Counted from the stretch's first letter, positions 5,840 to 24,564 are shown. The stretch: DNA of 64,000 nt from an uncultured bacterium (GCA_963825135.1 CAWGRW010000009.1:128001-192000), one strand, 5' to 3'. Program-made: numbers and translations. The notes: generated from the letters alone by a model not told the origin.

Positions 5840-5979
5840 ATAAGCAGTGCGCGGAGAGACGAGGCCGTAGAGTTCTCAAATAAAAAAGTGTGACATATAG
5901 AGCCCGATCAGCTTCACGCCTGCGGCCCGGTATTTACAAGGCTATTGCCGGCTGTATTATTTCCAGAGGAGGGACCGAC

Positions 5980-6307: not shown

Positions 6308-6365
6308 TAGACGGCCCGTGCCGCCGCGGCCTTTACAACCCCCGAGATTTCTGTAGAATTGGATT

Positions 6366-6713
6366 ATGAAAATCAAGCATCCGAAAAATCCCGCCCTATA
6401 TTATTCGCTAGTCCTGATTTGCGCGCTCGTAGCCGCGACGGGCTGTTTCTGGAAAGGAGACGAGGTCAAGTTTCCGAAGGCGTCCGACCCGGAGGCCGCG
6501 GCAACGTCTTGCGCTCAGAGCCAGGGGTTCGACGAACAGGTAACCAAACGTCTGACCTATCAGTTCAAAGAACACGACGGCGAGGTGAGCGACGATTTCA
6601 AGCTCGCGGCTTCGACCATAATTTCCGAATCCGGCAAAGTGCCCGCCCCGCAGCGCAATGCCGTGTTGAAGGAATATTTTTCCTGCCTCGCAGGTCCTGC
6701 CGAGAAGAAGTAG
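6366..6713 (+). CDS. Small putative lipoprotein, unknown function
   Basis: LVAATGC lipobox; shares a DP..C..G.D...F...DG...FK..AS..I.ES...AV...Y.SCL pattern with the upstream gene. Confidence 0.65.
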   Translation: MKIKHPKNPALYYSLVLICALVAATGCFWKGDEVKFPKASDPEAAATSCAQSQGFDEQVTKRLTYQFKEHDGEVSDDFKLAASTIISESGKVPAPQRNAVLKEYFSCLAGPAEKK

Positions 6714-6760
6714 CTCTCCCGCACCGGGAGAGGGTCAGGAGTCACGGGTGAGCCGTGTTT

Positions 6761-7738: not shown

Positions 7739-7790
7739 CGGCACAGACGACTGGACTTGAACCCGCGGCCACCGGTTTGACAGGCCGGCA
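7739..7790 (-). repeat. Degenerate tRNA-Asp 3' fragment R1 (att-like)
   Basis: cggcacagacgactggacttgaacccgcggccaccggtttgacaggccggca aligns without gaps to 24029-24080, 41/52 by manual count, and includes the GTC anticodon. Confidence 0.85.
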
Positions 7791-7900
7791 GCCCTCCTTT
7801 CCCGGGCGGACGGAGTTTGTGTTTTACTCATCGTCACACTATAATAGATTTTATATATCAATATTCCTCATAATTCGCGACTTAAACAGGAGGCAATAAC

Positions 7901-8278
7901 ATGAGCGTGAAAATAATTAATGCTATTTTATTGCTTTTCGTATTATCCATACCCGCTTTGGCTGCGGATACCCCTAAGATGCCCGAGGCAGACACTCCGG
8001 ACATGCCGAAAGTGGACACTCCCGAGATGCCCAAAGCAGATACTCCGGACATGCCGAAAGTAGACACTCCCGAGATGCCGAAAGCGGATACTCCGGACAT
8101 GCCGAAAGTAGACACTCCCGAGATGCCCAAAGCGGATACTCCGGACATGCCGAAAGTGGATACTCCGGACATGCTGAAAGCGGATACTCCCGAGATGCCG
8201 AAAGTGGATACTCCGGACATGCCGAAAGTAGACACTCCGGACATGCCCAAGGCAGATAATCCGGCAGCACCCGAATAA
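7901..8278 (+). CDS. Secreted protein made of 13 tandem 8-aa repeats ([AV]DTP[DE]MPK)
   Basis: AGGAGG RBS, 21-aa signal peptide, then 13 x 8 aa. Confidence 0.8.
   Translation: MSVKIINAILLLFVLSIPALAADTPKMPEADTPDMPKVDTPEMPKADTPDMPKVDTPEMPKADTPDMPKVDTPEMPKADTPDMPKVDTPDMLKADTPEMPKVDTPDMPKVDTPDMPKADNPAAPE
7964..8275 (+). repeat. 24-bp tandem repeat, 13 units, partial 48-bp higher-order alternation
   Basis: gc/gt-N-gaY-act-ccS-gaS-atg-ccS-aaR units read directly. Confidence 0.9.
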
Positions 8279-8416
8279 AGATATGTGAAAGTACATCCAC
8301 TCTATCAAGTGTAATTAAGCTCAACCCTCACGCGAGCTGACGTGTCAGTCAATGTCTAATAGGGATTGGAAATACAGGCAGTGACGCGGGACATTTACCC
8401 CCCTCCCCCCCGATTT

Positions 8417-9540
8417 CTAGGAGTGATCGATCAGGTACACGATCTGATCCTGGCTATGCATAAACCTGTAGTAGATGGAATACCATATGAGGATATAGAG
8501 CAGAGGGAAGACGAACCTCGCCGCTACGTTCCCGTAATCCCATATCTTCAGCTTTCCGTGGTGCTTGAACAACTCGAAGCTTATGACCGAAACGATCGTA
8601 ACGCCGCACATCAGGTATCCGGACAATATTATCGCGTCCAGAATCGTCAAGTAAGACACGTTCGGGAAGAAGCTCGATACGACGAAATTAAACGCCACGG
8701 CGGTCAGCGCGAAAGCGGCCACGATGCTCACGCGCCTGTCGAGCGACTCCCTCTGCATCCAGAATACACAGGTCGAGAGCAGTATGAAAAAGCAGAACGG
8801 AAATAGTATCCTCCACAGATAATACGCGGTCCTCCTTTCCATAGGGACGTAAAAGCTGACGTACGACCAGTCATCGGTTTCCGATTCCCAGAGCCTCCTG
8901 ATACCCGCTGTAGACGACATCTCGTGGAGTATCCACTCGTCGTTCTGAAAGTTATGATTGACGCCCGTCCTCTCGCTCCAGACCTTATAGTCGAGCTCGT
9001 CCTTGGGATATGAAAAGGATTCGAATTCCATCCTGACCGTCTGAAGGTCAAACGGGAATTTCCGGAATTCGAGCGTCGTCGCGGTATCCGCCACGAACAC
9101 GGAGGAATATACGATGTCCCCGTCCGGGTGAATGAGGAGTCTCTTGTTTATCTCCGTTATTGCGCCCAGCTGATTGGTGATCTGCGGGTCGGGCCACCAC
9201 ATGTATTTTATGCGCTCCGCGACCTCGTCTCCCATAACTATGTCCGGTTTATGATCCGCGCTCTCGAACGCCTCCTGGGGTCTTTCCAGTGAAGGGACAG
9301 GGCGTACCGGGCGCTCAGCATCTGCTTCGGCTGATCGAGCTTGATAAAATCGAGCAAATAAAGTCCGACGTCCACGGTCGTAGGCCCCCCGGCGTTGGGC
9401 GGAGTATTGTACTCCTTATGCTGTTGGGAAGCGAGGCTCGCGGCCGGGAGCAGAAAGAGATATATAACCAGGAGCGCGCCCATAACATCGAGCGCTCTCA
9501 AAGCGGTTCTACGCCCGCCATCAAGCGGGGCCGAATTCAT
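8417..9540 (-). CDS. Prokaryotic pentameric ligand-gated ion channel (GLIC/ELIC-like), split by a 1-nt frameshift at about 9273
   Basis: PTTVDVGLY, WKDPR, WWP, FPFDLQ (Pro-loop) and four C-terminal TM helices, spread across ORFs 9238..9561 and 8417..9235. Confidence 0.8.
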
Positions 9541-9713
9541 ACTTATCACTGCGGGAAGCACCCCGCTCTCAAGGGTTGTGTAATCATTAGAACCTGACCG
9601 GCGCGCCGTAAAAAGCCGGACAGGTAAGTTTACAACCGAATATCGTCTAAAAGCAAAGCCCTTCCAGAGATAGGTAAATAATTTCCGAATGATAGGGAAT
9701 CTCCGGAAAGGAA

Positions 9714-9750
9714 AGGCCGGGACGACGGGGCTTGAACCCGCACCGTCCGG
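9714..9750 (-). repeat. Degenerate tRNA-Asp 3' fragment R2 (att-like)
   Basis: aggccgggacgacggggcttgaacccgcaccgtccgg vs tggcggggacgacgggacttgaacccgcgacctctgg. Confidence 0.8.
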
Positions 9751-9791
9751 TCCGGACCTCCAACAATCAGCTCAGGACCTAACTCCGGACC

Positions 9792-11048
9792 TCATAAGCG
9801 CTTGTCGGAAGATGTATTCCGGGCCATTAATTTACCTATCAATTCGAAATATGATTTCAGGTGGGATTCCGCGTTCCACTTCCTGATGTAGCATTCATAG
9901 CCCCTGGTCCCGAGCTCTTCCCTCAATGAAGGCTCGTCAATGAGCCTATCCATCGCGCTTACTATTTCATTCTCGGAGTTGTATACAAATCCGCCGCCGC
10001 TCTCAACTACAAGCTCGGGGAGCCCCCCGATGTTATTTACTATGACGGGCGTTTTCTCCCTGAAGGCTTCAAACACCACAAGAGTGGAGATCTCATAGTT
10101 TATAGAGGGCACGATGAGGGCAACAGCCTTTTTATATATATTCCTGAGCCCGGCAGGCGGCACATAGCCGGTCATATCGATGTTCAGGCTTCCAAGTGCA
10201 AGCCGGCGGATGTCACCCTCATACTCGCCTTTACCGGCAATCACGAGTCTAGCTTTTTTATATTTTCTGAATAAGGGTATCAGATTCTGTATGCCCTTTA
10301 ATTTCTCGATCCTTCCCACATATAAAAAGAAAGGCTCTTCAGGAACAGTTATGTCGTATTTGCCGCCCCGGCCCGTGGAATAGTTATCTTCAGGGATAAA
10401 ATTCGGGATGTGATGTATGGGTACCTTCAAGCCCTTTGTTTCATACAGCTTTTTGCTGAACATGCTCGGGCTAATTATTGCGTCAAGATGGTCTAAAGAC
10501 TTGTCGATGAGACCGGTATACCTCCAGAGCTGAGGCGGGCGGGCGTGGACGAGCTGGCACATCAGGCAGTGAGGCTTTTCGCACGGGGCACGGTCAAACC
10601 TCATCAGCACATGGGTCGGGCAGACGAGCCAGTATTCGTGCGTCGTGTAGAGCTTGACCCCCTCCCCGTATTCGATTACCTTCGGTCCCCCTACGAGCGA
10701 AATATTGTGGAAGTGTATGACGTCGAATCCCCGGTCCAGAATCTCCTTGATCCGCCCCGATTTGAAAAAGGGATATCCCGTTTGCTGTGTAGCGAGCGGA
10801 GAGAGAAAACCGTATTTGCTCTTTAGTCCGCAAACATCGACATTCGGGTGGTTTTCATATACGGCGTCCGGTTCTCCGCCGGCAAGCATTTCATAAGAAT
10901 CGATGCAGTGAATTACGGTTACATGATGGCCCCTCCGGGCGAGTTCGTTCGCGAGCTGCCAGACATAGATTGCATCACCCCCGAAGCTCCAGGGAGGGTA
11001 GAACGTCGTGATCATGCAGAACCTGAGATGCTTCGGCGGAGCGCTCAT
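9792..11048 (-). CDS. Glycosyltransferase family 4
   Basis: FYPPWSFGG, FLYVGRIEKLKG, VPSINYE...EA motifs; start placed at the ATGA overlap with the upstream stop. Confidence 0.88.
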   Translation of the reverse strand: MSAPPKHLRFCMITTFYPPWSFGGDAIYVWQLANELARRGHHVTVIHCIDSYEMLAGGEPDAVYENHPNVDVCGLKSKYGFLSPLATQQTGYPFFKSGRIKEILDRGFDVIHFHNISLVGGPKVIEYGEGVKLYTTHEYWLVCPTHVLMRFDRAPCEKPHCLMCQLVHARPPQLWRYTGLIDKSLDHLDAIISPSMFSKKLYETKGLKVPIHHIPNFIPEDNYSTGRGGKYDITVPEEPFFLYVGRIEKLKGIQNLIPLFRKYKKARLVIAGKGEYEGDIRRLALGSLNIDMTGYVPPAGLRNIYKKAVALIVPSINYEISTLVVFEAFREKTPVIVNNIGGLPELVVESGGGFVYNSENEIVSAMDRLIDEPSLREELGTRGYECYIRKWNAESHLKSYFELIGKLMARNTSSDKRL

Positions 11049-11800
11049 CTTCCACCCAGCCCGCGCCTGACAGTACGCGGGATATTGCGTAAAAAGATGT
11101 ACACGGGAAATGACTTCGTCGTAATGAGATTGAACAACCTTTCGCGCCTGAGATAATAGGCGTCCACGCGCTCGAGGGCGTAGATATCGCTTTCCCTCGT
11201 TAATAAACCGAGCTTGTCCGAACATGCGCATTCGAAGTTTCTTCCCGCGATTTCAAGACCTCTCCCGTCGTATCTCCCGTAGGGATAGGCAAACGATAAG
11301 ACGGGAGCGCCCAGATTGTTCTCGATTATTTCTTTAGACCCGGTTATCTCGCGTAGGACGCCGGACGTCTCAATCAGGGTGAGGTCAGGGTGTGTGATCG
11401 TATGGGCTCCGAAATCGATTCCCGCTTGCTTCATTTCCCTTATCTCCCCCCAGCTCAGCATCTCGACCCCGTTAAGCGGCGTCAAACGGTCGTCAGCGCC
11501 CGCCTTCTTCGAGTCGCCCCCGGCGAGGAATATAGTGGCGGTCATCCGATAGTTATCAAGTACGGGAAAAGCCTCCGCGTACACGCTCCCGTACCCGTCG
11601 TCGAAGGTAATGACAAATGATTTTTCGGGGAAGGGCCTCCGATCTCTGATCAGGGCCGCCGCGTCGCTCAGCCTGAGAGTCCTGTATCCGTTCCGGTAGA
11701 GTCTTTCCATCGAGCGTCCGAACATTTCCGGGCTGAAAGCTATAACCGTGCGGCTGTCGTCTATCCTGTGGAAAGTCAGGACCGGAATATAACCTGCGAT
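11045..11800 (-). CDS. Polysaccharide deacetylase (NodB/CE4)
   Basis: ITFDDGY, HTITHPDL, FAYPYG; the in-frame N-terminal IPVLTFHRID lies upstream of the first ATG (11725). Confidence 0.85.
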   Translation of the reverse strand: MAGYIPVLTFHRIDDSRTVIAFSPEMFGRSMERLYRNGYRTLRLSDAAALIRDRRPFPEKSFVITFDDGYGSVYAEAFPVLDNYRMTATIFLAGGDSKKAGADDRLTPLNGVEMLSWGEIREMKQAGIDFGAHTITHPDLTLIETSGVLREITGSKEIIENNLGAPVLSFAYPYGRYDGRGLEIAGRNFECACSDKLGLLTRESDIYALERVDAYYLRRERLFNLITTKSFPVYIFLRNIPRTVRRGLGGR

Positions 11801-11955
11801 GCGAATTTCTCCTCCCCTGGAGTGTTCGGCATTTCCCGATCATCCGCGCGAGTATCCGCGGCAGGCGCTTTCATTAAATTAACGTCTCAACGGAGCCGGG
11901 GCCGAAATGAATGTCTATAGCGGATGACGGATTACTTTAATCTGGCGCTCGGAGA

Positions 11956-12300
11956 TCAATCAACCGTATCGTCCAAAGGCACCACCGCGACAAGCGCTGC
12001 TTCGTTTCCAAGAACACGCGTCGTATGACCCTCTCCCTCAGTGTCCAATATGACCCGGACGTCCCCCGCGCCAAATGTATGCCGGCTCCCGTCCCCGAAG
12101 CTATTTTCCAAACGGCCTGACAGAATGATGACGATCTGTCTGCGCGGGGCGGGGTGCCAGTCGAGGAACGTGCCCGGCGGAAATTCCTTAAAAAACATTG
12201 TCGATGCGGTCCTCATCGATGTCCAGAACGGATCGTGCGGCGGAAGCTCTTCGATGCGGGATCTGCCGTCTTCGCCCTTATAAATTCTGTATATGCCCAT
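11956..12300 (-). CDS. Cupin-fold protein
   Basis: DWHPAPRRQ...SG...G.GH pattern; start at MGIYRIY. Confidence 0.75.
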   Translation of the reverse strand: MGIYRIYKGEDGRSRIEELPPHDPFWTSMRTASTMFFKEFPPGTFLDWHPAPRRQIVIILSGRLENSFGDGSRHTFGAGDVRVILDTEGEGHTTRVLGNEAALVAVVPLDDTVD

Positions 12301-12310
12301 GTGTAAAGTT

Positions 12311-13195
12311 CTATCCGGCCGCTCGTATGTCGGTGCCTCTATTTCTAAGAAGAAGCTCCTGTTCATCCATCCCTTCAACGATCTCGAATGTGTCGATCGC
12401 AGGACCGAGATTCATAGACGCGACGCGTCCGAACATTATTCTCATCGCCTCGCGTACGTCCTCCGGTATGCGGAGGAAATCCTCTATTCTGAACATCTCG
12501 ACGTGTTCTTTCGCGAGCCCCCTCCCGAATTTGCTCGCGAAGGAATACACTTCCCGGGAATTTTCGCACCCCCACAGGAGAGAGCGCTGACAGGCGGCGG
12601 CAATATCGCGCGTCAGCCCCTCGCCAAGCCCCTTCCGGACAAGGTTGAGTCCCACGGGCAGAGGGAGCCCCGTGTCCTCACACCATGCGACACCAAGATC
12701 GCGCACACAGACGAGCCCCCTTTCCCGGAAGTGGATTAGCTCTTCGTGTATCATAACGCCCGCATCCACTTTGTCCCCGGCGATAGCGTCGACTATGGCG
12801 TCAAAGGGCATTTCAACAAGATCGATATCCGGACAATACATCAACGCAAGCACGCTGCCCGTCGTCGGATGCCCCCCCACCGCAACTCGCTTTCCCCGCA
12901 GGTCTTCGACCGTCTTGTATCGTTTTGAAACGAGTGCAGGGCCGAAATTCCTCCCCACGCTGTTCCCTACGCAAAGAATAAGGTACTTGTCGGCGACCTT
13001 GGGGTAGAAAACGGAAGAGACGGCTACGACGTCGTATTGAGCCTCGAGTGCCGCACGATTGAGATCGATGATATGATTCCGATAAAATACGGGCTTGCAG
13101 CCGTCGACGCCCAACGTTACTCGACCTTGCTCCCAGGCGTAGTAGTTGAACAAATCATCGCTGTCCGGCGTGTAGGCGATAGAAAGATCCTTCAT
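12311..13195 (-). CDS. MqnD/MqnA-like periplasmic-binding-fold enzyme
   Basis: AYTPDSDD, GRNFGP, TTG, GVMIHE, DLG..W...TGLPLP motifs of the MqnD family; RBS before MKDLSIAY. Confidence 0.75.
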   Translation of the reverse strand: MKDLSIAYTPDSDDLFNYYAWEQGRVTLGVDGCKPVFYRNHIIDLNRAALEAQYDVVAVSSVFYPKVADKYLILCVGNSVGRNFGPALVSKRYKTVEDLRGKRVAVGGHPTTGSVLALMYCPDIDLVEMPFDAIVDAIAGDKVDAGVMIHEELIHFRERGLVCVRDLGVAWCEDTGLPLPVGLNLVRKGLGEGLTRDIAAACQRSLLWGCENSREVYSFASKFGRGLAKEHVEMFRIEDFLRIPEDVREAMRIMFGRVASMNLGPAIDTFEIVEGMDEQELLLRNRGTDIRAAG

Positions 13196-13400
13196 TAACA
13201 CTCCCCCTCGCAATCTAAGAGCATTATTAATAGTTATGAATGAGAAATCAAACGACGTTAGATCATTATCCAAGGGTCTAAATAAGCATATATTGGTAAC
13301 ACATTAGTAATATTAGATATTCTCGGATATATTATCCCGGTTCATACATAGCGTCAAAATACTCGTTTAACGCTTGTACACGATAGTCTCAGATACCGCT

Positions 13401-14978
13401 ATGCTCGATGATTTGAAAATTTTCAGCAGGTACGCATGGGGGCTCAATGATTTCTTCCGTCACACCCTGCCCCCGGAAGTCTGCAGAAATATGATTGCCG
13501 GTCAGCTGCAAAACAGGGAGAAGTCCTTTTTGCGCATACTGAAGCTGGGGATTTACGATAATCCGAGAAGCCCGTATTTCAAGCTCCTAAGGCACGCGGG
13601 GATCGAGTACGGGGATTTTGTAAAACTTGTAGAGAGCGAAGGCGTTGAGGGATCACTCTCGAAAATCTACGACTCAGGCGTTTACCTCACTCTGAATGAA
13701 TTCAAGGGCAGGCAGCCCGTCCGTCGCCCCGGGCTCGAGTTCCCGACCCAGCCCCATGATTTCGACAACCCGTTCCTGGTTAAGTTTTATGAAGCAAGGA
13801 GCGGCGGGTCGAGGAGCAGGGGGAACCGCATCATTATCGACCTCGATCTGCTCACCCATGAGGCCGCCTATTTTCAATCATTTCTCGAGTCATTCGGGTT
13901 GACCGCGAATCCCCGGGGAGCATGGCGGGAGATACCCCCCGTGGCTGTAGGAATGAAACTCGCCCTCCGTTATTCCAAGCTCGGGAGTCCGCTCGAACGG
14001 TGGTTTTCGCCCACCGCGCTTTCGCTCGATTTAAAAAACCTCAAATTCTATATCTTCACGAGATACAGCATCCTTGCGAGCAGGATGTTCTCGAATCCCA
14101 TGCCCGTGCCCGAGCACGTGCCTCTGAACGAGGCTCACAAGGTCGCCGCCTGGCTCGAGACGAAGAGAAGCCAAGGCAGACCGGCCGTTCTGGATACTAA
14201 TGTGAGCGCCGCGGTCAGGGTATGCCTCGCCGCCCGGGAAAAGGGGTTCGACATATCAGGCACCTTCTTCCCGGGAGGAGGCGAACCGCTCACACCGGCA
14301 AAAGCGAAGATAATAAGAGAAACCGGCAGCAGGGCACACTGCCACTATTCGATGACGGAATTGGGCACCATGGGGCTTGCTTGCGCGAACCCCATACACC
14401 TGGACGAAGTCCACCTCCTCACCGATAAGATAGCGGTGATACAGCGTACGAAGGAAGTAGGGGCCGGCGGAGGGAAGGTCGGAGCCCTCGTATATACGTC
14501 TGTCCTTCCGCTCTGCCCGAAGCTCATGCTGAACGTGGAGAGCGACGACTACGGAGATCTCGAGTCGAGGGACTGCGGCTGCCGAATAGGAGAGCTCGGA
14601 TACGGTACGCACCTTTCCAATATCAGAAGCTATGAAAAACTTACGAGCGAGGGAGTGAGCTTCCTCGGGACAGAGTTGATCAGGGTAATCGAGGAGGTCC
14701 TGCCCGGCAGGTTCGGGGGCGGCCCTACAGACTACCAGTTCGCAGAGGAAGAGGTGGACGGGCTTCCGAAGGTAAATATAGTCGTGAGCCCTCGAGTGGG
14801 AGAGGTTGACGATAAAGCAGTCATCGACGCGGTAGTCAACGCTCTTATCCCCTATCCGGGGGGCGAGGTGATGGTCAGTCAGTGGCGCCAGGGTAACACC
14901 CTCCGCGTTATAAGAAGAGAGCCTTACACCACGTCGTCCGCGAAAATCCTGCCCCTGCATATCACTAAATTATCGTAG
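13401..14978 (+). CDS. Adenylate-forming enzyme, PaaK/GH3-like
   Basis: RSGGSRS P-loop-like motif, GGEPLT, YSMTELG, C-terminal TSSAKILP. Confidence 0.6.
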   Translation: MLDDLKIFSRYAWGLNDFFRHTLPPEVCRNMIAGQLQNREKSFLRILKLGIYDNPRSPYFKLLRHAGIEYGDFVKLVESEGVEGSLSKIYDSGVYLTLNEFKGRQPVRRPGLEFPTQPHDFDNPFLVKFYEARSGGSRSRGNRIIIDLDLLTHEAAYFQSFLESFGLTANPRGAWREIPPVAVGMKLALRYSKLGSPLERWFSPTALSLDLKNLKFYIFTRYSILASRMFSNPMPVPEHVPLNEAHKVAAWLETKRSQGRPAVLDTNVSAAVRVCLAAREKGFDISGTFFPGGGEPLTPAKAKIIRETGSRAHCHYSMTELGTMGLACANPIHLDEVHLLTDKIAVIQRTKEVGAGGGKVGALVYTSVLPLCPKLMLNVESDDYGDLESRDCGCRIGELGYGTHLSNIRSYEKLTSEGVSFLGTELIRVIEEVLPGRFGGGPTDYQFAEEEVDGLPKVNIVVSPRVGEVDDKAVIDAVVNALIPYPGGEVMVSQWRQGNTLRVIRREPYTTSSAKILPLHITKLS

Positions 14979-15097
14979 TGTAGATTCGATATAATATATT
15001 CACGGGTCGTTTCATGCCTCTCGATATCGTCTCCCCGCGAACCGGGATACCCCGAGCCGTCACTTGTTAGTCGGCAGGACCGGCTCTCTCCCGTCCA

Positions 15098-16079
15098 TTA
15101 TCTATATTCCCTGTCCAAAATCATACGCCTTAGTCTCGAATCCTCCTTCCCGACCGGATATCTCATGTTCTTCACCACAAGGTCCCCGAAATCCGTCCTT
15201 ATCGTTGAGACATACGCAAACATCATCAGGTGACGGGGTTTCACCGCGTTACGGCTGCCGTAGTGAAAACACACATTGCTGTCAATGAACAACACCGTCC
15301 CCGCGGGATAACAGAGCCTTATCAATTCACTCTCGGGAACGACCGCATACATCTTCTCGTCAGTAACTCGGTGACCGCCTTTCTTTGTATGATAATCACC
15401 GAGACCTGTCTCCGGCTTTCGCCGACACGGACTTGGGCAGGAAGCAAAAAGGCCCCCTCTCCATCGTGACCTCCCTCAAAACGACAATGACGTAGACCAT
15501 CGGCTTATCGTGGTAGTCAAGATGAAAGAGCTGGCTCTCTCTGGGCTGAGCGTCGGGGTTATCATCGAATTTATTCCAGGACTCTACAAGCCTCACGCCG
15601 TAGGGTCTGGAATAAGAAAGCGTGGGTATGAAGCCGAGGTAGCTGCATACGGTCGACAGCACGTCCGAAGAAGTCGCGAAATTGAGTATCGATGGGCACC
15701 TCGGGAAGTAATCTTCGATAAATATATCCTGAAAAAAAGGCCTCCATTTAAGATGCTGCTTTTCGCCGCCCCGCTCATCTATTATCTCTGCCGATTCCCT
15801 GAGGAGCTCCTCGAGATAAGGAAGCCTCCCTGAGGTATCGATAACCCATCCGTCCTTCATTTCGTTCACGGGCGCGACAGGGTTTCCGTTCTCTTTGATA
15901 AGCTCCGGGAAATTATCCCGATACTGCCGCTTCCTGTACTCATGATACTTCCCGAACCTGAGACTGTTATAGGCCCTGGCAATCGCCGTAGTGCTATTCA
16001 CCCCCAGGGCGCTCATGTAATTCCTCTCGAGGATTTTGGCGGCAGGTTTGAATACCGCGTCCATGGCTTTACCGATCAT
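15098..16079 (-). CDS. Fe(II)/2-oxoglutarate dioxygenase (PhyH-like), copy 2, +1 frameshift at about 15413
   Basis: Near-identical to 16137..17114; an extra G (gccGgagaca vs gccgagaga) splits it into two ORFs. Confidence 0.7.
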
Positions 16080-16136
16080 CTCTCCTCCCGCGCCGCCGCT
16101 TGATTCCCAGACGGACCGGCGCTATTCCGCTCCTTA

Positions 16137-17114
16137 TCAATATTCCTTGTCCAGCACCATACGCCTCAGCTTTGAATCCTCCTTCCCGACCGGATATCTC
16201 ATGTTCCTGAGCACTATATCGCCGAAATCCGTCCTAATTGTTGAGACATACGCAAACATCATCAGGTGACGGGGTTTCACCGCGTTACGGCTGCCGTAGT
16301 GAAAACACGCGCTGCTGTCGATGAACAACACCGTCCCCGCCGGATAACAGAGCCTTATCAATTCGCTCTCGGGAACGACCGCATACATTTTCTCGTCAGT
16401 AACACGGTGACCGCCCTTCTTTGTATGGTAATCAACGAGACCTCTCTCGGCTTTCGCCGACACTGACTTGGGCAGGAAGCAGAAGGGCCCCCTCTCCATC
16501 GTGACATCCCTCAAAACGACAATTACATAAACCATCGGCTTATCATGATAGTCGAGATGAAAGAGCTGGCTCTCTCTCGGCTGAACATTAGGCGTATCAT
16601 CGAATTTATTCCAGGACTCGATGAGCCTCACGCCGTAAGGTTTGGAATAAGAAAGCGTGGGTATGAAGCCGAGGTAGCTGCATACCGCCGACAGCACGTC
16701 AGAAGAGGTTGCGAAATTGAGTATAGATGGGCACCTCTGGAAATAATCGTCGGTAAATAAATCCTGGAAAAATGGTCTCCTGTAAAATTGATGCTTTTCG
16801 CCGCCCCGCTCATCTATTATCTCTGCCGATTCCCTGAGAAGCTCCTCGAGATAAGGAAGCCTCCCCGAGGTATCGATAACCCATCCGTCCTTCATTTCGT
16901 TTACGGGCGCGACAGGATATCCGTTCTCGGCAATCAGCTCGGAAAAGTTTTCCCTATACCGCCTCTTCCTCTGCTCGTGGCTGCTTCCGTGCCTGAGACT
17001 GTTGTAGGCCCTGGCAATCGCCGTAGTATTATTCACCCCCAGGGCGCTCATGTAATTCCTCTCAAGTGCCCTGGCAGCCGGTTTGAATACCGCGTCCATG
17101 GTTTTACCGATCAT
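16137..17114 (-). CDS. Fe(II)/2-oxoglutarate dioxygenase (PhyH-like), copy 1
   Basis: HLD...GP...FHYGSR...R matches an HxD...H facial triad plus 2OG-binding Arg. Confidence 0.7.
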   Translation of the reverse strand: MIGKTMDAVFKPAARALERNYMSALGVNNTTAIARAYNSLRHGSSHEQRKRRYRENFSELIAENGYPVAPVNEMKDGWVIDTSGRLPYLEELLRESAEIIDERGGEKHQFYRRPFFQDLFTDDYFQRCPSILNFATSSDVLSAVCSYLGFIPTLSYSKPYGVRLIESWNKFDDTPNVQPRESQLFHLDYHDKPMVYVIVVLRDVTMERGPFCFLPKSVSAKAERGLVDYHTKKGGHRVTDEKMYAVVPESELIRLCYPAGTVLFIDSSACFHYGSRNAVKPRHLMMFAYVSTIRTDFGDIVLRNMRYPVGKEDSKLRRMVLDKEY

Positions 17115-17275
17115 TTCTCCCCTCCTCCTGCGTGAGCAGACCGCCGTGATCCTCTACGCACGCGCGTTATGGAATGTTGAAAAATAATACAAGATTATGA
17201 ATAAATTGAGAAGTAAGGGTAAAAGTTTGCTATGGGATAACAATCTGTGCCGGCGGCTGTAACGGCAATAAAAAC

Positions 17276-17314
17276 CGGCGGCGACGGGGCTTGAACCCGC
17301 GACCTCCGGTGTGA
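17276..17314 (-). repeat. Degenerate tRNA-Asp 3' fragment R3 (att-like)
   Basis: cggcgg---cgacggggcttgaacccgcgacctccggtgtga, with a 3-nt deletion relative to tRNA-Asp. Confidence 0.85.
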
Positions 17315-17384
17315 GGGTCTATTGCACCGGGAAAACCAAACAGCGTCTCAACCCGGCCAAAAGGGGGCATATCCGCGCCGAGGC

Positions 17385-18341
17385 CTACTCCAGCTTCGTC
17401 CATGTTTTATCAGGATTGAATTCTTTTACGCCTAGCGCGATTTTTTCGGTGTCCTCTCCCAGGTCTTTTTGATAGATCGCCCCGTTCTGGTTGACTAGAA
17501 ACGTCATTACGCCGCTCGAACCGTACTTCGCGGGATAGGCCAGGAGAGCGAATCCCCCAACCATGTAGCCGTTGATCAGGTAGCTGTATTTCCCCCCGGG
17601 CGCGTTGGGCCCCTGGGAGGTCAGGATGCGGTAGTAGTAGCCGTGATAAGGTACGGGTTCGGGGTGGGCCTTGGCAATATTGTAGCCCTCCGCCGTTGCG
17701 CCGGCCATCAAAGGGCCTATCGGACTCTCTTCTTCGCCCTTCGCCGCATCCCAATAGAGCCCATCGTGCTTGCCGGGCGTGCTAAGGAACTTTCTGGCGT
17801 ACTCGAGCACTCCATTGCCGTTCCTGTCCTCACTCGCGTAATCCCGCTCGGCGCTGACGAAGTTGGCGCAAACTGATATGGTATTGAGCTCATTTTTCCC
17901 GATCCTTCTGTCAAGCATCTCTTCCATCCCCGACGCCGTATCGAAGTGCCATTTATCACCGTCCTTTACTAAGGGGACGGGGAACGGCCAGTCGTCGTTT
18001 CCGATGCTGAGGATTGCTTTCCCGTCCTTCGTATAATCGATGCGGTTCATCTCATCGGTTCTTTTGACAAAGTTTTGCATCGCGATTTCGTCGGCCTTTT
18101 GATCTCCCGAAGAGACCAGATCCTCGCTGCCGGGGCCGAAGATCTCTAAAAGCTGTTCCGTGCTCTCCGATTTCGCTGCGGCGATAAGAGCCTTCACCGC
18201 GTCCTCGGGCGAGGAAAAGACCTGCTGCTGAACCGTGTCGGCATGAGAATCAATCGAAAGAATCCATAGTAAGGCAAGCGTGAATGTCAAAAATAATGAT
18301 GGAAGGTATCTTGATAAGCTTCTTTTGGTCTTATTAGCCAT
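17385..18341 (-). CDS. DUF2950 family protein
   Basis: FSSPEDAV, WPFPVPL, RRIGKNEL, GLYW, PYHGYYYRIL, YGSSGVMTF. Confidence 0.88.
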   Translation of the reverse strand: MANKTKRSLSRYLPSLFLTFTLALLWILSIDSHADTVQQQVFSSPEDAVKALIAAAKSESTEQLLEIFGPGSEDLVSSGDQKADEIAMQNFVKRTDEMNRIDYTKDGKAILSIGNDDWPFPVPLVKDGDKWHFDTASGMEEMLDRRIGKNELNTISVCANFVSAERDYASEDRNGNGVLEYARKFLSTPGKHDGLYWDAAKGEEESPIGPLMAGATAEGYNIAKAHPEPVPYHGYYYRILTSQGPNAPGGKYSYLINGYMVGGFALLAYPAKYGSSGVMTFLVNQNGAIYQKDLGEDTEKIALGVKEFNPDKTWTKLE

Positions 18342-18385
18342 TATGATTTCCCCCTGTATTGTATGCTGATAAATGATGGAACCCC

Positions 18386-19693
18386 TTATCTCCTTTTACC
18401 TCTGTTGCTGCCCTTGCTGCCTCTCTGGCTGCCGCTTCTGCTTGTGCTGCGCTGATAGCTCTCACGGCTCGATCTCCCGCGATTACTATCGGCCCGGGTC
18501 TCGCTGCGGCTCCCGTAGCCGCTGAACGCATCGGAGCGGTCTCTCGACCCGGTGCTTCTGTTCTCCCCGGTCCTCGCGCGATCCCTTGTGCTTGATGCGG
18601 ATGAGCCCGTATTCTTTCTATCCTCAATCCCTGACTTGCTCGAACCCGTTTGACGGCTCTCACGCCCGACCTTGCTCTCCTGTTTCGTCGCCTGACCGCG
18701 GTCATAACCGCTGAAGGCCCCGTTATCTCCCCTGTCTTGCAGCCCTTTCTCGACTGAGGCTGTCGTCGGTCTTTTTTCACCATACCCTTTATACTCGCGG
18801 TTGGACACGCCCTGATTTCCTTTCTGGTACCGCTCGGCAACTGTATTATTCTTGTATTCGACCCCTCTCCTGTGCTCGGGGTTGTGCTGCCAACGGCGTT
18901 CCCCCGCATTGTTTCCGTTGATGTTGACCTTATTCCCGATATTAACATCCCCTCTGTTGATATTTACATTTGTATTCCCGTGCCCGTATCCCCCTCCCCA
19001 GTAGCAGCAATTGTTATGACCCCAGTCGAAACTGGCGAAGGTGGCGCCTACCGCTACTCCGAGACCGAACGAAAAGACGCTCGACGCGACGTATCCGGGA
19101 GGATATATGGCATAGGGAGGATATGCGGGATAGTACCAGGTGCCGTATACGACCGCCGGGTTATACGCGGGGACATAGACGACCTGCGGGTCGGCGGGTT
19201 GTATGATTATAGTTTCCTTTTCCTTAACAACGACCTGCTCCTTGGTCGATTTCAGATTTCCCGAGGAGTCCGCTCTTTCCCTGAGCACCTGCACCGCGTC
19301 CATCACTTCCTGCTGCTGCGCGAGGAACGCATCGCCGAGGCTCGTAGTCCAGTCGAGATTCTCATTCATCATTGAAACCACGTCCGGAAATTCGACGAGG
19401 GATTTTACGCTATCGTCCCAGTCCTGTTTCTGGGCTTCCGCGAACAATTGCTCTCCCTTGAGATTCTTATTCTTATCCAGCCAGCGCGCGGCCTGCACGA
19501 CCTCCAGGGGATACGTTGACGCCATCAGGACCTGGGCCAGGAGCGTATCGGGATAAAGCGCAATCGGAGCCAGCAATTGCTCGAGTTCCGCGGAGCTCAG
19601 TCGTCCGGACGGGTCTTCCTGGGCGAATGAACACCTTGAGCCTAGGGTGCTAAATAAGAGAATGATAACAACGCCATACTTGATTACCCGCAT
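18386..19693 (-). CDS. DUF3300 family protein with a Gly/Arg/Ser-rich tail
   Basis: LEQLLAPIALYPDTLLAQVLMASTYP, WDDSVKSL, VVYVPAYNP, WQHNPEHRRGV; usually paired with DUF2950. Confidence 0.88.
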   Translation of the reverse strand: MRVIKYGVVIILLFSTLGSRCSFAQEDPSGRLSSAELEQLLAPIALYPDTLLAQVLMASTYPLEVVQAARWLDKNKNLKGEQLFAEAQKQDWDDSVKSLVEFPDVVSMMNENLDWTTSLGDAFLAQQQEVMDAVQVLRERADSSGNLKSTKEQVVVKEKETIIIQPADPQVVYVPAYNPAVVYGTWYYPAYPPYAIYPPGYVASSVFSFGLGVAVGATFASFDWGHNNCCYWGGGYGHGNTNVNINRGDVNIGNKVNINGNNAGERRWQHNPEHRRGVEYKNNTVAERYQKGNQGVSNREYKGYGEKRPTTASVEKGLQDRGDNGAFSGYDRGQATKQESKVGRESRQTGSSKSGIEDRKNTGSSASSTRDRARTGENRSTGSRDRSDAFSGYGSRSETRADSNRGRSSRESYQRSTSRSGSQRGSKGSNRGKRR

Positions 19694-20050
19694 TATCCCA
19701 CCTCGTGGAAAATGATTTATAAAGACATCAAGTGTGAAATCCCCTCGATGTCGACTTGATATAAACATCCTTGATACACTGATTATCGCTTTCGGGCTGA
19801 GCCGGGCCCGGGCATAAGCCCCGCGGCTCGAGCATCATTTATAAAACAGTCTGTTTCGCATCTTTTATCAGAATTGACATAAATTATATGATAATTATCA
19901 TAAATTGCACGGAAAGCAATGAAAGAATGTTACCATAAACCATGGCAATTCATAACATTAGATACAACCCTTTTTCCGCTTTAATCCGGGTAAAATCGAG
20001 GCCCGGCCCTCGACCGGCCGGATCATTGCACGAAAGCCCCGGCACATTTG

Positions 20051-20276
20051 CTATGCTTTCTTCAAAAGGCGCATCAAGGGAGAACGGTTATATAGACGTG
20101 TTCCGACAGTTCTTGATCCTCTATTCCACAAATGCTGAACAGAAGTTACGATCCAACTCGGGACATTGTCATTGGGCATCAACCATTTGGCAAGTGATTG
20201 AGATATCGTTAGGGCACGATAGGCCAGTTCGATGGGATACAGGGTAGAATTTCTCAACTTTTAAATCGAGTCTCAC
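20051..20276 (-). pseudogene. Decayed SRPBCC/Aha1-domain gene
   Basis: GTG overlapping the ArsR stop gives MRLDLKVEKFYP; after a frameshift comes YPIELAYRALT...LAKWLMPND, then similarity is lost. Confidence 0.6.
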
Positions 20277-20617
20277 AGCTCACTTCCTTTTTCATCAAAT
20301 AAGTGCTGAAGCCTGTCAAGGCTGCTTTCCCAAAATCGCCTGTAATGTGTGAGCCATTCATAAACCTCTCGTAAAGTATCGGGCCTCGCCTGATAAATAC
20401 GAAAGCGCCCTTGTTTGCGCCGAGATACCAACCCGGCTTCGGCAAGAATCTGCAAGTGTTGAGAGACGGCCTGAAAAGAAATATCAAAGTGACTTGCCAG
20501 GTTGTGAACGGGCATTTCTTCTTGCTGCAACAGATCAAGTATTTTTCGGCGATTGGTATCAGCAATCGCATGAAATACATCAGATTTTTGAGTTGTAACG
20601 ATTTCTGAATTCCGCAT
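20273..20617 (-). CDS. ArsR/SmtB family transcriptional regulator
   Basis: DVFHAIADTNRRKILDLL, AVSQHLQILAEAGLV, W...LD.L. Confidence 0.88.
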   Translation of the reverse strand: MRNSEIVTTQKSDVFHAIADTNRRKILDLLQQEEMPVHNLASHFDISFQAVSQHLQILAEAGLVSRRKQGRFRIYQARPDTLREVYEWLTHYRRFWESSLDRLQHLFDEKGSEL

Positions 20618-20628
20618 GAAATGATTAT

Positions 20629-20691
20629 ATTCAAGAAGATGCTTGAATGTCAAATAAGGGCGTGCTACGATATTCAATCAATCACTTAAAT
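20629..20691. promoter_or_regulatory. Two putative ArsR operators in a divergent promoter
   Basis: ATTCAAG-N6-CTTGAAT (20629-20648) and ATTCAAT-N6-CTTAAAT (20672-20691). Confidence 0.6.
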
Positions 20692-20708
20692 GAGGAGGTC
20701 TGATCTTC

Positions 20709-21434
20709 ATGAAAAAAGAATCCGGCGGCGGCATCAATAACCACATTGTGGTTAACCATGAGGAGTGGCTTACTGCGCGTATGTCGCTCCTCGCAAAGGA
20801 GAAAGAATTTACCCGGTTGCGTGACCAGCTCAGCCAAGAGCGGAGAAACCTGCCGTGGGAAGAAGTCGAGAAGGAGTATATTTTTGAGGGTTCGAACGGT
20901 AAGCAAAACTTGGGAGAGCTCTTTGATGGTAGAAGCCAATTGATCGTCTATCACTTCATGTTTGGCCCGAGCTGGGTGGCAGGATGCCCCCACTGCTCCC
21001 GTTGGGCTGACAGTTTCAATGGAATAATTATTCACTTGAACCAGCGCGATGTAACCATGATCGCCGTGTCACGGGCGCCTTACACCAGGTTAGCGGCATA
21101 CCAGAAGCGAATGGGCTGGAATTTTAAGTGGGTCTCATCACTTGAGACGGATTTCAATTTTGATTGCCATGTGTCGTTTACACCGGAAGAGCTGGCCGGG
21201 AAAAAAACATTCTATAACTTCACAATGGAAGATCAAGATAGTTCTGAGCGGGAAGGGGTCAGCGTATTTTACAAGGACTCGGCGGGTAAAGTGTTTCACA
21301 CCTACTCGACTTATGCGCGCGGCATCGACTTATTGAACGTGGATTATAATTACCTTGACCTTGTGCCCAAGGGCCGGGATGAGGGAGATCGTGGACCCTT
21401 TTGGGTGCGCCGCCACGATGAATACGGTCTATAA
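20709..21434 (+). CDS. DUF899 thioredoxin-like protein
   Basis: EWLTAR..LL.KEK, LFDGRSQLIVYHFMF, CPHCS, HTYSTYARG, WVRRHDEY. Confidence 0.9.
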   Translation: MKKESGGGINNHIVVNHEEWLTARMSLLAKEKEFTRLRDQLSQERRNLPWEEVEKEYIFEGSNGKQNLGELFDGRSQLIVYHFMFGPSWVAGCPHCSRWADSFNGIIIHLNQRDVTMIAVSRAPYTRLAAYQKRMGWNFKWVSSLETDFNFDCHVSFTPEELAGKKTFYNFTMEDQDSSEREGVSVFYKDSAGKVFHTYSTYARGIDLLNVDYNYLDLVPKGRDEGDRGPFWVRRHDEYGL

Positions 21435-21603
21435 CCGGTAATCGGGCAGCATCGACAGGGGGACCGAGAAATGATCGTAAAAAGCTATAGACGCCAGATC
21501 CGAGATCGCGGCAGGTGCTCTCAATTCCAGGCATTACTACTCGTCAAACCGGCAAATGGAAACGAATAATCTACCCGGTCAATTGTTATTAAGGAATAAG
21601 TAC

Positions 21604-21643
21604 CGGCGGGGACGACGAGGCTTGACCCCGCGACCTCTGGCTT
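21604..21643 (-). repeat. Degenerate tRNA-Asp 3' fragment R4 (att-like, closest to the tRNA)
   Basis: cggcggggacgacgaggcttgaccccgcgacctctggctt, 36/40 identical to 24029-24068 by manual count. Confidence 0.9.
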
Positions 21644-21799
21644 CGGAGGGCTTTAGTATAGTTGTATGAATTATTACCCTTTTGTATAGAGCGTACCGCT
21701 CCCCATTAGTCAAGCTCGGATTAACGCGGAGTGATGAACCGTAAAAATGTTAAAAATTTAAATGCCATTATTATCCGGTCTTATGCCCTGCTCCGGCAC

Positions 21800-22174
21800 T
21801 CAGTCCGTTCCCCAAGGGTTGTCGATCACGATGCGCCAGGATCCGTCTTCCTGACGACGCAGAACATCCGCGGATTTTCCCGCCAGCTTCTCCGGTTCGC
21901 CGTCCGGCCCGGTTCCGGTGAATGACCAAACCGAGATTACGAGGGCCAGACCGCTCGCCTCAAGAACCCTTGTCACTTTGAGATCGAGTGTGCCCTTCAT
22001 CGCGATGAAACCGGCCAGCGCTTCACGGATACCCGGTATGCCGCGGGCGAGGTTCCCGGGCTGAGCCGCAAGAGCGGCGTCAGGCTCATAAAGAGTCATG
22101 AGAGTGTCGAGATCGCCGGCGTTAATTCCGTCAACTACAGATTTGAGGACTTGCTCGGGTGTTCCTCTGGACAT
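21800..22174 (-). CDS. NTF2-like/SnoaL (DUF4440) protein
   Basis: INAGDLD...LYEPDA, VLRRQEDGSWRIVIDNPW. Confidence 0.8.
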   Translation of the reverse strand: MSRGTPEQVLKSVVDGINAGDLDTLMTLYEPDAALAAQPGNLARGIPGIREALAGFIAMKGTLDLKVTRVLEASGLALVISVWSFTGTGPDGEPEKLAGKSADVLRRQEDGSWRIVIDNPWGTD

Positions 22175-22411
22175 ACCATCCTCCCGCTATGTTAAGTTTT
22201 TAATCGTCGTGTAGAGGCCTGACTACCAATTAGACTGCCTAGATTGCTAATCCCGTTTTACGCATGAAGCTTTTCTATTGCTATTCTCTCACAAGTAAGA
22301 AGTTCTTGTCAAGCAAAGGTATAGGTCCACTACATATGAGAGATGGAGTAAGATAATAAAAAGAAGCTGACCGGAAGACTTACTGTGCGGGGTTTTTGCA
22401 GTTCGGGAAAA

Positions 22412-23590
22412 TTAATACTTTTTAACTACAACAGCATCTCCATCGAAACCTATGAATCTGTCGACACAACTGCCGCATACCGGACAATAAACTTCTATAT
22501 TTCCCTGGTGACCGGGTATAACGCGTTCTTCGATCACCAGATTCTTAAGACACCAATAGCATACATATTCACGTTTAATAACATTCATATCTTCGGTCTC
22601 GTGTGGCGGAATTGTTCCGATCTGAAACGCTTGAATGTCCGGAGAAGACGGCTTAGAAATCGTAACTAACTCAACGCCGTCCGAGAACACGCTTACCGGG
22701 CCGTCTTCCGATACCGTAAGTACGACTGATTTAGCTTCTTCATAAGAGTATCTTAGAGCTGAGGTATGACGAGTTCCTCTATACTCGGGGATCATCTCCT
22801 TAGTCGATTCCTTGCTGTCTAATTTAATTTTCGTACATCCAAGTATCCCGTCCTGGTTGAAAAATGTAGCGCCGTCAACTTGCGACAATAAATTTGAAAT
22901 CAGTATTTTATGTTCATCACTCAAAATAGATAGAGTAATCGGAGCAAGGTCCTCAAGGGGTTCAACTTTTGGAATTTTAGACCCCGTCTCGTCGTCAATG
23001 AAATATATAATGGTCGCTCCAATATTTCTTGGACTCAAATAATAGTATGCAAATTCGAGAAGAGCCGATAGTATTTCATCTTGCATTTGCGGTACATGTA
23101 ATTTAATTTTTGTTATGAGAGGATATATGCATTGTATTTTTAACCAATTTCTATTGTGATGTATGTATAGATTGTTATTATGGAACAACTTTGTTTTTAA
23201 GGCATTATCTCTTTGCAGTATCAAAGCGTTTAAATCTTGATGCAATCTTAATAATTCGTATTCTGAACCATAAATTTCGTTCAAAAATATAAGCCCAATC
23301 AGGTTATCTCGTTCATATAACAAATATGATTTATATCCATCTGATAATATTCTTAATGTGGAAGAGTCCAATGTCTTGTTGAATATTATTTTATAGGACT
23401 TTAAGTTCTCGATATTTTCTACAAAAATCACACCGAAGGTTGGTATTAGATTTTCATGCAGCGTAGGATATACACAATAACTTAGCTCTTCCCAAAATAA
23501 TTCCATATCTTTCCATTTGTTGTCTATATCTATTTGATTTAACTCTAACTCATGCTTCAAAATAGAAATTTTTGTATTATTGTCCATCAT
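22412..23590 (-). CDS. Diadenylate cyclase (DisA_N/DAC) domain protein with uncharacterised N-terminus and C-terminal Zn ribbon; AT-rich
   Basis: IGAT, VDGA, GTRHTSA, VSEDG.V motifs; CxxC...CPxC at the C-terminus. Confidence 0.8.
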   Translation of the reverse strand: MMDNNTKISILKHELELNQIDIDNKWKDMELFWEELSYCVYPTLHENLIPTFGVIFVENIENLKSYKIIFNKTLDSSTLRILSDGYKSYLLYERDNLIGLIFLNEIYGSEYELLRLHQDLNALILQRDNALKTKLFHNNNLYIHHNRNWLKIQCIYPLITKIKLHVPQMQDEILSALLEFAYYYLSPRNIGATIIYFIDDETGSKIPKVEPLEDLAPITLSILSDEHKILISNLLSQVDGATFFNQDGILGCTKIKLDSKESTKEMIPEYRGTRHTSALRYSYEEAKSVVLTVSEDGPVSVFSDGVELVTISKPSSPDIQAFQIGTIPPHETEDMNVIKREYVCYWCLKNLVIEERVIPGHQGNIEVYCPVCGSCVDRFIGFDGDAVVVKKY

Positions 23591-24028
23591 GGATCGATAT
23601 CAATCTTTGTTCTTGTGGATGAATTATTACAAATCCCGTCAATTTGAATAAAGCTGTTATTATTTTAACCCTCTCGGATTATTATTAGAATAGGCCAAAA
23701 TCCTTTTACTGCATATATACCCGTACCTTCTAACTTATTTGTTGTTAAAGACTAATTCATATATATAATTCTTTTTCTCAGCATGTCTTTCAGCCGCATA
23801 TACGGCCACCCCGGCTATTCAATGCAAGTATACCTCAAACCATTGCCGGAACCTTTCTTTGTTCTCGTCCTGCGGCCGCCGGAGTTTTTCGGTACACCGG
23901 AGAGTATTCGTGTCTTCTTCGGTATTCGGACAGTGTGGAGCCTGTCCGTAGTTAGAATAGCGCCAACAAAAGTGCTAACACTTTTACCCTGGTTTCCATT
24001 TGTCCAGCCGGGAATGTTCATTAGTGAC

Positions 24029-24106
24029 TGGCGGGGACGACGGGACTTGAACCCGCGACCTCTGGCTTGACAGGCCAGCGTTCTAACCGGACTGAACTAC
24101 GTCCCC
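24029..24106 (-). tRNA. tRNA-Asp(GTC)
   Basis: GGGGACG...CTGGC-CTGTCAA-GCCAG...GGTTCAAG...CGTCCCC G CCA. Confidence 0.97.
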
Positions 24107-24123: not shown

Positions 24124-24200
24124 TGGTGGGCGGTACAGGATTTGAACCTATGACATCCTGCTTGTAAGGCAGGCGCTCTCCCATGCTGAGCTAACCGCCC
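24124..24200 (-). tRNA. tRNA-Val(TAC)
   Basis: GGGCGGT...CCTGC-CTTACAA-GCAGG...GGTTCAAAT...ACCGCCC A CCA. Confidence 0.97.
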
Positions 24201-24533: not shown

Positions 24534-24564
24534 CCCTCTTCAAAATCATCTTTTAGTTTATAGT

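Follow-up and report, generated by a model that had tools for sequence, protein, structure and literature searches.

Behind the intact tRNA-Asp gene of an uncultured Thermodesulfobacteriota bacterium, positions 7740-24028 of the 64 kb stretch analyzed here (GCA_963825135.1 CAWGRW010000009.1:128001-192000, hereafter the window, in which all R and M labels are placed) most probably form a hypervariable stack of islands, built up by tandem accretion of integrase-delivered elements whose integrases have since been lost and which now resemble remnants of cis-mobilizable elements (CIMEs). Degenerate copies of the 3' part of tRNA-Asp (R1-R4 and a fifth, R4') are confined to the 16.3 kb behind the gene within these 64 kb, and stand as same-strand direct repeats at the distal boundaries of five modules, M1-M5 (Table 1). 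Foreign DNA (M1) lies directly 3' of the intact tRNA, where the related locus L003 has an orthologue of M3, and the relatives differ from the window at the boundaries of M1 and M2, of M4 and of M5. A first-pass annotation of this DNA had offered two explanations, an integron-style cassette platform served by a recombinase in trans and a stack of old islands without their integrases; it is the latter that fits best.

The displaced copies were sought with blastn-short, using the 78-nt tRNA-Asp as query against the window, and scored in an ungapped scan with a 27-nt core comprising the T arm and the acceptor strand. Comparisons of fragments and integrases for this genome apply to the 64 kb. The four same-orientation, intergenic copies described in the first-pass annotation are real (blastn-short E 2e-10 to 1e-5): all lie on the tRNA strand downstream of tRNA-Asp and between genes on the open reading frame (ORF) map, and each of them contains the 3' strand of the acceptor stem together with the CC of the terminal CCA. 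In the 52-nt 3' part, 41 (R1), 38 (R2), 40 (R3) and 42 (R4) positions match the gene (73-81%). Three of them had been thought to stop at or near the anticodon loop; R1 does end there, and R4 extends across the loop and has a compensatory C..G pair in its anticodon stem, whereas in R2 and R3 the match is firm only across the T arm and the acceptor strand and becomes weak toward the 5' side. In the anticodon-stem strand R1 reads CCAG, as does the tRNA itself, and R2, R3 and R4 read CCGG. Beyond these four, the best tRNA-Asp matches in the 64 kb are 10-mers (blastn-short, E 3.3). The core scan reached at least 18/27 at one further position (61859, 18/27), against a mean of 1.66 such positions in 50 shuffled windows, and Rfam (E ≤ 1) identified no RNA genes in positions 1-34000 besides four tRNAs.

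To these four copies a fifth has to be added. R4' sits just past the stop codon (8417-8419) of an ion-channel gene, and its core score of 17/27 lies at the limit of what chance produces (in random 200-nt windows the maximum is 17 and the 95th percentile 16); it is recognizable solely via its orthologue in the related locus L005, and was found by aligning window 8520-7690 with that locus. The module sizes given initially (2.4, 4.3, 7.5 and 1.9 kb) are correct, with R4' dividing the last into 1.3 kb (M4) and 0.6 kb (M5).

Relatives were obtained from one scan of genome contigs with Lon, taking 10 kb flanks, which yielded 80 loci, all from metagenome-assembled genomes (MAGs). The nearest are labelled Thermodesulfobacteriota or Dadabacteria, with Lon identities of 95% (L003), 94% (L005), 90% (L004, cut inside lon), 89% (L001), 88% (L002), 82% (L006), 81% (L007) and 77% (L008). 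In the window tig, clpP, clpX and lon lie upstream of the tRNA-Val/tRNA-Asp pair, and the order lon/tRNA-Val/tRNA-Asp is kept in the closest relatives and in 48 of the 80 loci. Nucleotide identity from tig to lon (5.66 kb) is 88.7% between the window and L003, 89.1% between the window and L005 and 95.2% between L003 and L005, each being about 75% identical to L001. With L001 as outgroup, 181 informative sites unite L003 and L005, against 33 and 38 for the other pairings, which gives the tree (window,(L003,L005)).

The comparison with L003 documents insertion at tRNA-Asp. The window tRNA-Asp differs from those of L005 and L003 by one and two mismatches, respectively, in the T arm only, and the L003 gene (13966-14043) directly abuts the orthologue of window 17309-16131. 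R2 aligns base by base with the 3' end of this L003 tRNA, starting in the variable loop and reaching the acceptor end, and beyond it the two sequences stay collinear across the spacer (90.5% identity over 105 nt) and into the next gene, encoding a PhyH-like protein (87% amino acid identity). Because R2 aligns with the L003 tRNA end and the sequences are collinear beyond it, M1 and M2 (together 6.7 kb) are, on this alignment, an insertion into tRNA-Asp in the lineage of the window. The proposal in the first-pass annotation that the fragments are tRNA-Asp 3' ends displaced by insertions is thereby upheld, R2 being the positional orthologue of an intact tRNA end. About 5 of the 32 nt of R2 have changed relative to this end, at least as much divergence as in the adjacent spacer; R2 is therefore not being conserved. 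M1 starts directly at the last base of tRNA-Asp and is clearly atypical in base composition, with a GC content of 33-36% at 22501-24000 (the cyclase gene) against 54.7% window-wide; it is the most recent insertion. The GC content of M2 is 47-55%, and that of M3-M5 is close to background. The first 30 nt downstream of R1 are similar to those following tRNA-Asp in L005 (z 5.4, reached by 0 of 200 shuffles), which suggests related element ends in two lineages.

At the outer end of the array, module-precise differences are found at the old remnants. R4 directly abuts a flank conserved in L003 and L005, and an acceptor-end remnant is present at the junction with this flank in all three genomes. The 266-aa ORF of the flank is 87% identical to L003 19514-20314 and L005 21374-22174, and the small ORFs beyond it (5327-6751) are 49-73% identical to L003, the two loci being visible only to window positions ~4966 (L003) and ~6510 (L005). 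M4 is present in the window and in L005, where homology of the ion-channel module opens just after R3 (~9709), and the DNA that L003 lacks here is bounded precisely by two remnants. The one remnant in L003 (from 19324) is a hybrid that matches, on its left, the L005 remnant upstream of the channel gene (19842) and, on its right, the one downstream (21182), with the acceptor-stem core covered by both alignments. With this tree, the simplest account would be that L003 lost M4 through recombination between the two remnants flanking it. M5 is bounded exactly by R4' and R4; the alignment gap relative to L005 spans R4' to R4, and the L005 orthologue of R4' adjoins the same flank sequence as R4 in the window. 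Either a gain in the lineage of the window or a loss in the ancestor of L003 and L005 would produce this pattern, the outgroup L001 having unrelated DNA behind its tRNA-Asp. The three genomes thus display turnover of the locus, by insertion at the tRNA and by gain or loss of whole modules at old remnants, with a direction inferred for M4 only.

Site-specific recombinases are absent from the array but present at the same tRNA in relatives. Pfam detected no integrase, transposase or phage family in 29 ORFs, and no recombinase, transposase or phage family (E ≤ 0.1) in 114 of the 124 stop-to-stop frames of at least 65 aa overlapping 5000-24100; the remaining 10 comprise nine long genes already scanned with Pfam and one 75-aa frame (4785-5009). 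Among 23 ORFs, PHROGs returned no integrase but only a glycosyltransferase, a radical-SAM-labelled family (a second match on the glycosyltransferase ORF), helix-turn-helix (HTH) regulators and one family of unknown function. A tblastn search of the window with the L008 integrase gave nothing at E ≤ 10, and 27 ORFs elsewhere in the window are housekeeping genes without a recombinase (Pfam). The earlier observation that the array holds no integrase, transposase or phage gene was thus reproduced by all three methods. In L008, in contrast, the gene for a tyrosine recombinase (365 aa; Phage_integrase, E 1.4e-30) lies 840 nt past tRNA-Asp, on the opposite strand, and L006 and L002 contain homologous integrase C-termini (65% identity) 100-150 nt past tRNA-Asp, at contig ends. 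An integrase therefore stands beside tRNA-Asp in three of the seven closest loci having any sequence past this gene; in distant loci none was found in 40 ORFs scanned, from 81 candidates (180-600 aa, starting within 4 kb after tRNA-Asp, 36 loci). The contigs stop inside the integrase gene in L002 (5826-5918) and L006 (6550-6786), as expected if a mobile element breaks the assembly. We infer that integrases of this kind made the insertions in the window, and that their absence from the array reflects loss rather than action in trans.

Table 1. Features of the tRNA-Asp locus in the window, ordered outward from the intact tRNA genes.
Feature	Position	Strand	Content or identity	Evidence or remarks
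tRNA-Val(TAC)	24124..24200	-	Last conserved gene before the integration target	ARAGORN; Rfam tRNA 69.3 bits
tRNA-Asp(GTC)	24029..24106	-	Intact; integration target (attL side)	ARAGORN; Rfam 75.5 bits
M1, 2.4 kb	21644..24028		DACNK-DAC diadenylate cyclase (22412-23590, -), SnoaL-like protein (21800-22174, -)	Pfam; window-specific
R1	21605..21643	-	Displaced tRNA-Asp 3' part, anticodon-loop end to acceptor end	blastn-short 36/39 identical, E 2e-10; core 24/27
M2, 4.3 kb	17307..21604		DUF899 (20709-21434, +), ArsR/SmtB regulator (20273-20677, -), ORF 19942-20247 (+), DUF3300 (18386-19768, -), DUF2950 (17385-18341, -)	Pfam, NCBIfam
R2	17274..17306	-	Displaced 3' end, orthologue of the L003 intact tRNA-Asp 3' end	blastn-short 24/25 (17282-17306), E 9e-7; core 22/27
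M3, 7.5 kb mosaic	9742..17273		PhyH-like (16137-17114, -), frameshifted tandem copy (15098-16079, -), 534-aa ORF (13374-14978, +), MqnA-like (12311-13273, -), cupin (11956-12378, -)	Pfam
M3, window-only piece			Polysaccharide deacetylase (11045-11725, -), GT4 glycosyltransferase (9792-11231, -)	Pfam
R3	9715..9741	-	Displaced T arm and acceptor strand	blastn-short 22/23 (9719-9741), E 1e-5; core 25/27
M4, 1.3 kb	8404..9714	-	Pentameric ligand-gated ion-channel homologue (8417-9561), frameshifted	Neur_chan_LBD over two frames
R4'	8377..8403	-	Fifth, heavily decayed remnant	17/27 core; aligns with L005 remnant at 21167 (20/27)
M5, 0.6 kb	7787..8376	+	One gene (7901-8278, +), 125-aa protein	Absent from L005 and L003
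R4	7740..7786	-	Outermost displaced 3' part, passes through anticodon loop	blastn-short 36/41 (7746-7786), E 9e-7; core 23/27; 42/52
Distal flank	5327..7561		266-aa ORF (6761-7561, -), three small ORFs (5327-6751)	No Pfam matches

A plausible course of events can be outlined from these data. A mobile element would integrate site-specifically into tRNA-Asp, within the 3' part, and restore the gene with the copy of this part that it carries, while the earlier 3' end and all DNA behind it would be pushed outward. Repeated rounds would yield the order tRNA / M1 / R1 / M2 / R2 / M3 / R3 / M4 / R4' / M5 / R4 / conserved flank, with the youngest insertion nearest the tRNA. The integrase genes and most of each element would have been deleted later, or some modules may never have had an integrase and have been carried in with a neighbor. 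The leftover attachment (att) copies and some of the cargo genes would now be decaying, and occasional recombination between remnants would remove or add a whole module. The low GC content of M1 and the integrases encoded in cis in L002, L006 and L008 are consistent with this scheme, and signs of decay are found in the divergence of R2 and in the frameshifted ion-channel gene and PhyH-like duplicate. In the latter respect the modules do not all hold whole gene sets, as had been supposed: relative to the intact L005 gene (20018-21163, 381 aa) the M4 channel gene has 1-nt deletions at ~9275 and ~8557, and the PhyH-like copy at 15098-16079 has a 1-nt insertion at ~15413.

The treatment of the 7.5 kb between R2 and R3 as a single module did not stand up to comparison with the relatives. 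The core of M3 is common to the window, L003 and L005, but it has been rearranged. The PhyH-like gene is tandemly duplicated in the window, where the second PhyH-like paralogue of L003 and L005 is missing; the 534-aa ORF is inverted, relocated and 61% identical to its counterpart in these loci; and the piece encoding the deacetylase and the GT4 glycosyltransferase is found in the window alone. No tRNA remnant occurs at the internal breakpoints of M3 (best ungapped match 16/27, within chance), which weakens the picture of tidy cassettes. In L005, a 1.5 kb GT4 insert between tRNA-Asp and M3 replaces the 138-nt spacer of L003, again with no distal remnant. The prediction that synteny breaks fall at the fragments therefore holds for M1 and M2, which occur in the window only, for M4 in L003 and for M5 in L005 and L003, but not for the breaks within M3 or for the L005 insert.

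Several observations weigh against a stack of decayed islands. The modules are small (0.6-7.5 kb) for former islands, and not even a fragment of an integrase was found in them by six-frame Pfam and tblastn searches, so that repeated clean loss must be assumed; integrase pseudogenes in every module, named in the first-pass annotation as a mark of ordinary decayed tandem islands, were not found. Preservation of the copies shows no steady fall with distance from the tRNA (41, 38, 40 and 42/52), and the outermost R4 is better preserved than R4' (23 versus 17/27). The variation at M4 and M5, although these are the outermost modules, needs recombination at displaced remnants and not at the tRNA alone. 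One of the frameshifts falls at a CCCC run, so that assembly error is possible for the frameshifts. Moreover, a distant Thermodesulfobacteriota MAG (L056, Lon 59%) indicates that young integrase-less inserts at tRNA-Asp do exist. Its 5.3 kb segment behind tRNA-Asp (L056:12562-18154) carries an Xre/RES toxin-antitoxin pair and ends at a repeat of 204 nt that is about 97% identical and extends from the anticodon stem to 153 nt past the gene, which is unusually long for an att repeat. The segment has no ORF longer than 184 aa, and no integrase was found in the 12 of its 19 ORFs that were scanned. Among the 48 loci with tRNA-Asp, this is the only one with an extra tRNA-Asp copy at E ≤ 0.01; other extra matches are other tRNAs.

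Some of these observations would be explained if integrase-less, CIME-like modules were moved at tRNA-Asp and its remnants by a tyrosine integrase whose gene lies at another genomic site or on a transient element. The lack of an integrase in the array and in the 64 kb, the differences of exactly one module at remnants distant from the tRNA (M4 in L003, M5 in L005 and L003), the similarity between the R1 flank and the L005 tRNA-Asp flank, and the integrase-less L056 island with its well-preserved repeat could all be accommodated. R2, however, decays about as fast as neutral spacer, R4' is nearly unrecognizable and there is no sign of current mobility; integrases are encoded in cis at tRNA-Asp in L002, L006 and L008; deletion between short direct repeats gives module-precise loss without an integrase; and the L005 GT4 insert and the M3 rearrangements lack a remnant. 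We therefore rank movement in trans as less likely than decay of tandem islands, and consider it improbable. More specifically, tRNA-Asp and its displaced 3' halves could constitute a reusable docking array at which tiny integrase-less modules (0.6-5 kb; M5, M4, M1 and the L056 toxin-antitoxin island) are swapped singly by an integrase in trans. This idea is equally doubtful; if it were true, the array would be a tRNA-att analogue of the integron, with the M4 and M5 differences and the shared element end as its footprints.

It is unlikely, if slightly less so, that M1 and M2 (or more) were joined in a donor and arrived in one entry, R1 being an imported internal att site. Both modules are window-specific and inseparable with the relatives at hand, and transfer of whole accreted tandems has been reported in the account of such elements in PMC5704250. 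Their GC contents differ, however (33-36% for the cyclase gene of M1 against 47-55% for M2), and the CCAG of R1 as opposed to the CCGG of R2, R3 and R4 fits separate events. Finally, the fragments might not be att sites at all, but a dispersed tRNA-derived repeat (similar to miniature inverted-repeat transposable elements or repetitive extragenic palindromes) or chance look-alikes of the T arm, since T-arm features are common to all tRNAs and other tRNAs score 18/27 in the core scan. Yet the copies lie on one strand in one 16 kb stretch behind the matching tRNA and are missing from the remaining 47.7 kb, R2 is the positional orthologue of a genuine tRNA end, and synteny breaks coincide with the copies, which leaves this explanation close to refuted.

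Accretion and subsequent decay of tandem islands has precedents. CIMEs, defined on ICESt1-related elements of Streptococcus thermophilus (Pavlovic et al., 2004, as summarized in PMC5704250), and an accretion pathway for tandem elements have been described (PMC5704250), and at the ssrA gene of Dehalococcoides the published account (PMC3146451) lists tandem islands with more than a dozen direct repeats, 15 of the islands being without an integration module. The locus in the window appears to follow both the accretion-and-decay pathway of tandem elements and CIMEs and the Dehalococcoides ssrA pattern. As described for the ssrA arrays (PMC3146451), tandem islands lie behind one small-RNA gene with direct repeats of its 3' end, strain-variable content and some islands lacking an integration module; unlike them, with their serine recombinase, the target here is tRNA-Asp and the relatives encode a tyrosine recombinase. 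In addition, the repeats in the window have degenerated to 73-81% identity over 52 nt, none of the five modules has an integrase and the host is an uncultured member of the Thermodesulfobacteriota. In common with CIMEs, which according to PMC5704250 have lost their integration and transfer genes but kept their att flanks, the modules lack integration and transfer genes (Pfam, tblastn, PHROGs) and retain att-like boundaries. CIMEs are defined by working att sites, whereas the sites here are visibly decayed (38-42/52, R2 decaying like neutral DNA) and no mobilizing neighbor is present in the 64 kb; the modules can at most be called former CIMEs. Fragments of tRNA genes commonly serve as attR sites (PMC9897764). 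Like those described in that source, the copies are partial 3' copies of about 40-48 nt that begin at or close to the anticodon loop and stand at the distal end of the insertion; in the textbook case there is one element with one fragment, whereas here there are five fragments and no recombinase.

Chromosomal integrons, the model favored initially, likewise combine arrays of unrelated cargo with recurring recombination-site separators and no recombinase inside the cassettes. However, no integron-defining feature was identified. Instead of intI, attI and Pc, the array is flanked by lon, a 77-aa ORF and tRNA-Val, with no recombinase in the 64 kb; its separators are direct copies of the tRNA-Asp 3' end and not attC sites (imperfect inverted repeats); and its modules are not mostly single, promoterless, co-oriented ORFs, as M2 and M3 have at least five genes on both strands and M2 has its own ArsR regulator. 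Together with the cis-encoded integrases in three relatives, the divergence of R2 and the synteny breaks without fragments, this argues against an integron-style platform. As a stack of decayed islands, the locus is a hot spot of integration in an uncultured and little-studied lineage of the Thermodesulfobacteriota, where five nested att remnants leave an unusually complete record. It reveals no new recombination system, but a well-known route of bacterial genome growth. Its description is useful for annotating these MAGs, whose contigs tend to break here, and flags M1 and M2 as recent foreign DNA.

The origin of the inner modules was sought through their genes. The SnoaL-like gene of M1 has no tblastn match in the 80 loci, and its cyclase has one distant match of 74 aa (39%), in L054. 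The protein neighbors of the cyclase are three close clusters (94, 73 and 71%), with all others at most 33%; the three clusters are metagenomic, and no donor of M1 could be named. L054, a Desulfocapsa MAG, carries a sensor-domain diadenylate cyclase (DACND-DACNH-DAC, 5339-6859) as the first gene after lon/tRNA-Val/tRNA-Asp, and the M1 cyclase is likewise first. None of the M2 genes has a tblastn match in the 80 loci, so this module is window-specific as well. For M1 and M2 as a module, plasmid records gave only gene-level matches to DUF3300 and DUF2950 (65-69%, at most 7% query coverage) and phages gave none. A role as a defense island was considered and rejected: PADLOC matched only the ArsR HTH domain among 19 proteins, and an NCBIfam 'anti-phage' match of the cyclase (19.6 bits) is below threshold.

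In M3, the cluster conserved between the window (11956-17114), L003 (14205-19300) and L005 (14700-19748) is of unknown function and comprises two PhyH-like genes, an MqnA-like VitK2_biosynth gene, a cupin gene and a gene for a protein of about 530 aa without a Pfam match. DNA identity of this cluster between L003 and L005 is only 83-84%, versus 95% for the core, which suggests allele exchange or fast evolution. The M5 protein has a hydrophobic N-terminus followed by about 10 tandem 8-residue DTPxMPKx repeats (24-nt period, 10.6 copies), and a GGAGG motif precedes its gene; the only family matches were a low-complexity one in Pfam (Cornifin) and a borderline one to a PHROGs family of unknown function (E 9e-4).

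Smaller differences were also noted on either side of the array. In the distal flank, L003 alone has a gene for a HicB-like antitoxin (20407-20631), within a 390-nt indel relative to L005. Between lon and tRNA-Val there are about 1.2 kb in L003 (12490-13697), compared with about 350 nt in L005. The 77-aa ORF in this interval of the window (24316-24549) has no Pfam or PHROGs match and is 83% identical to L005 over 48 aa.

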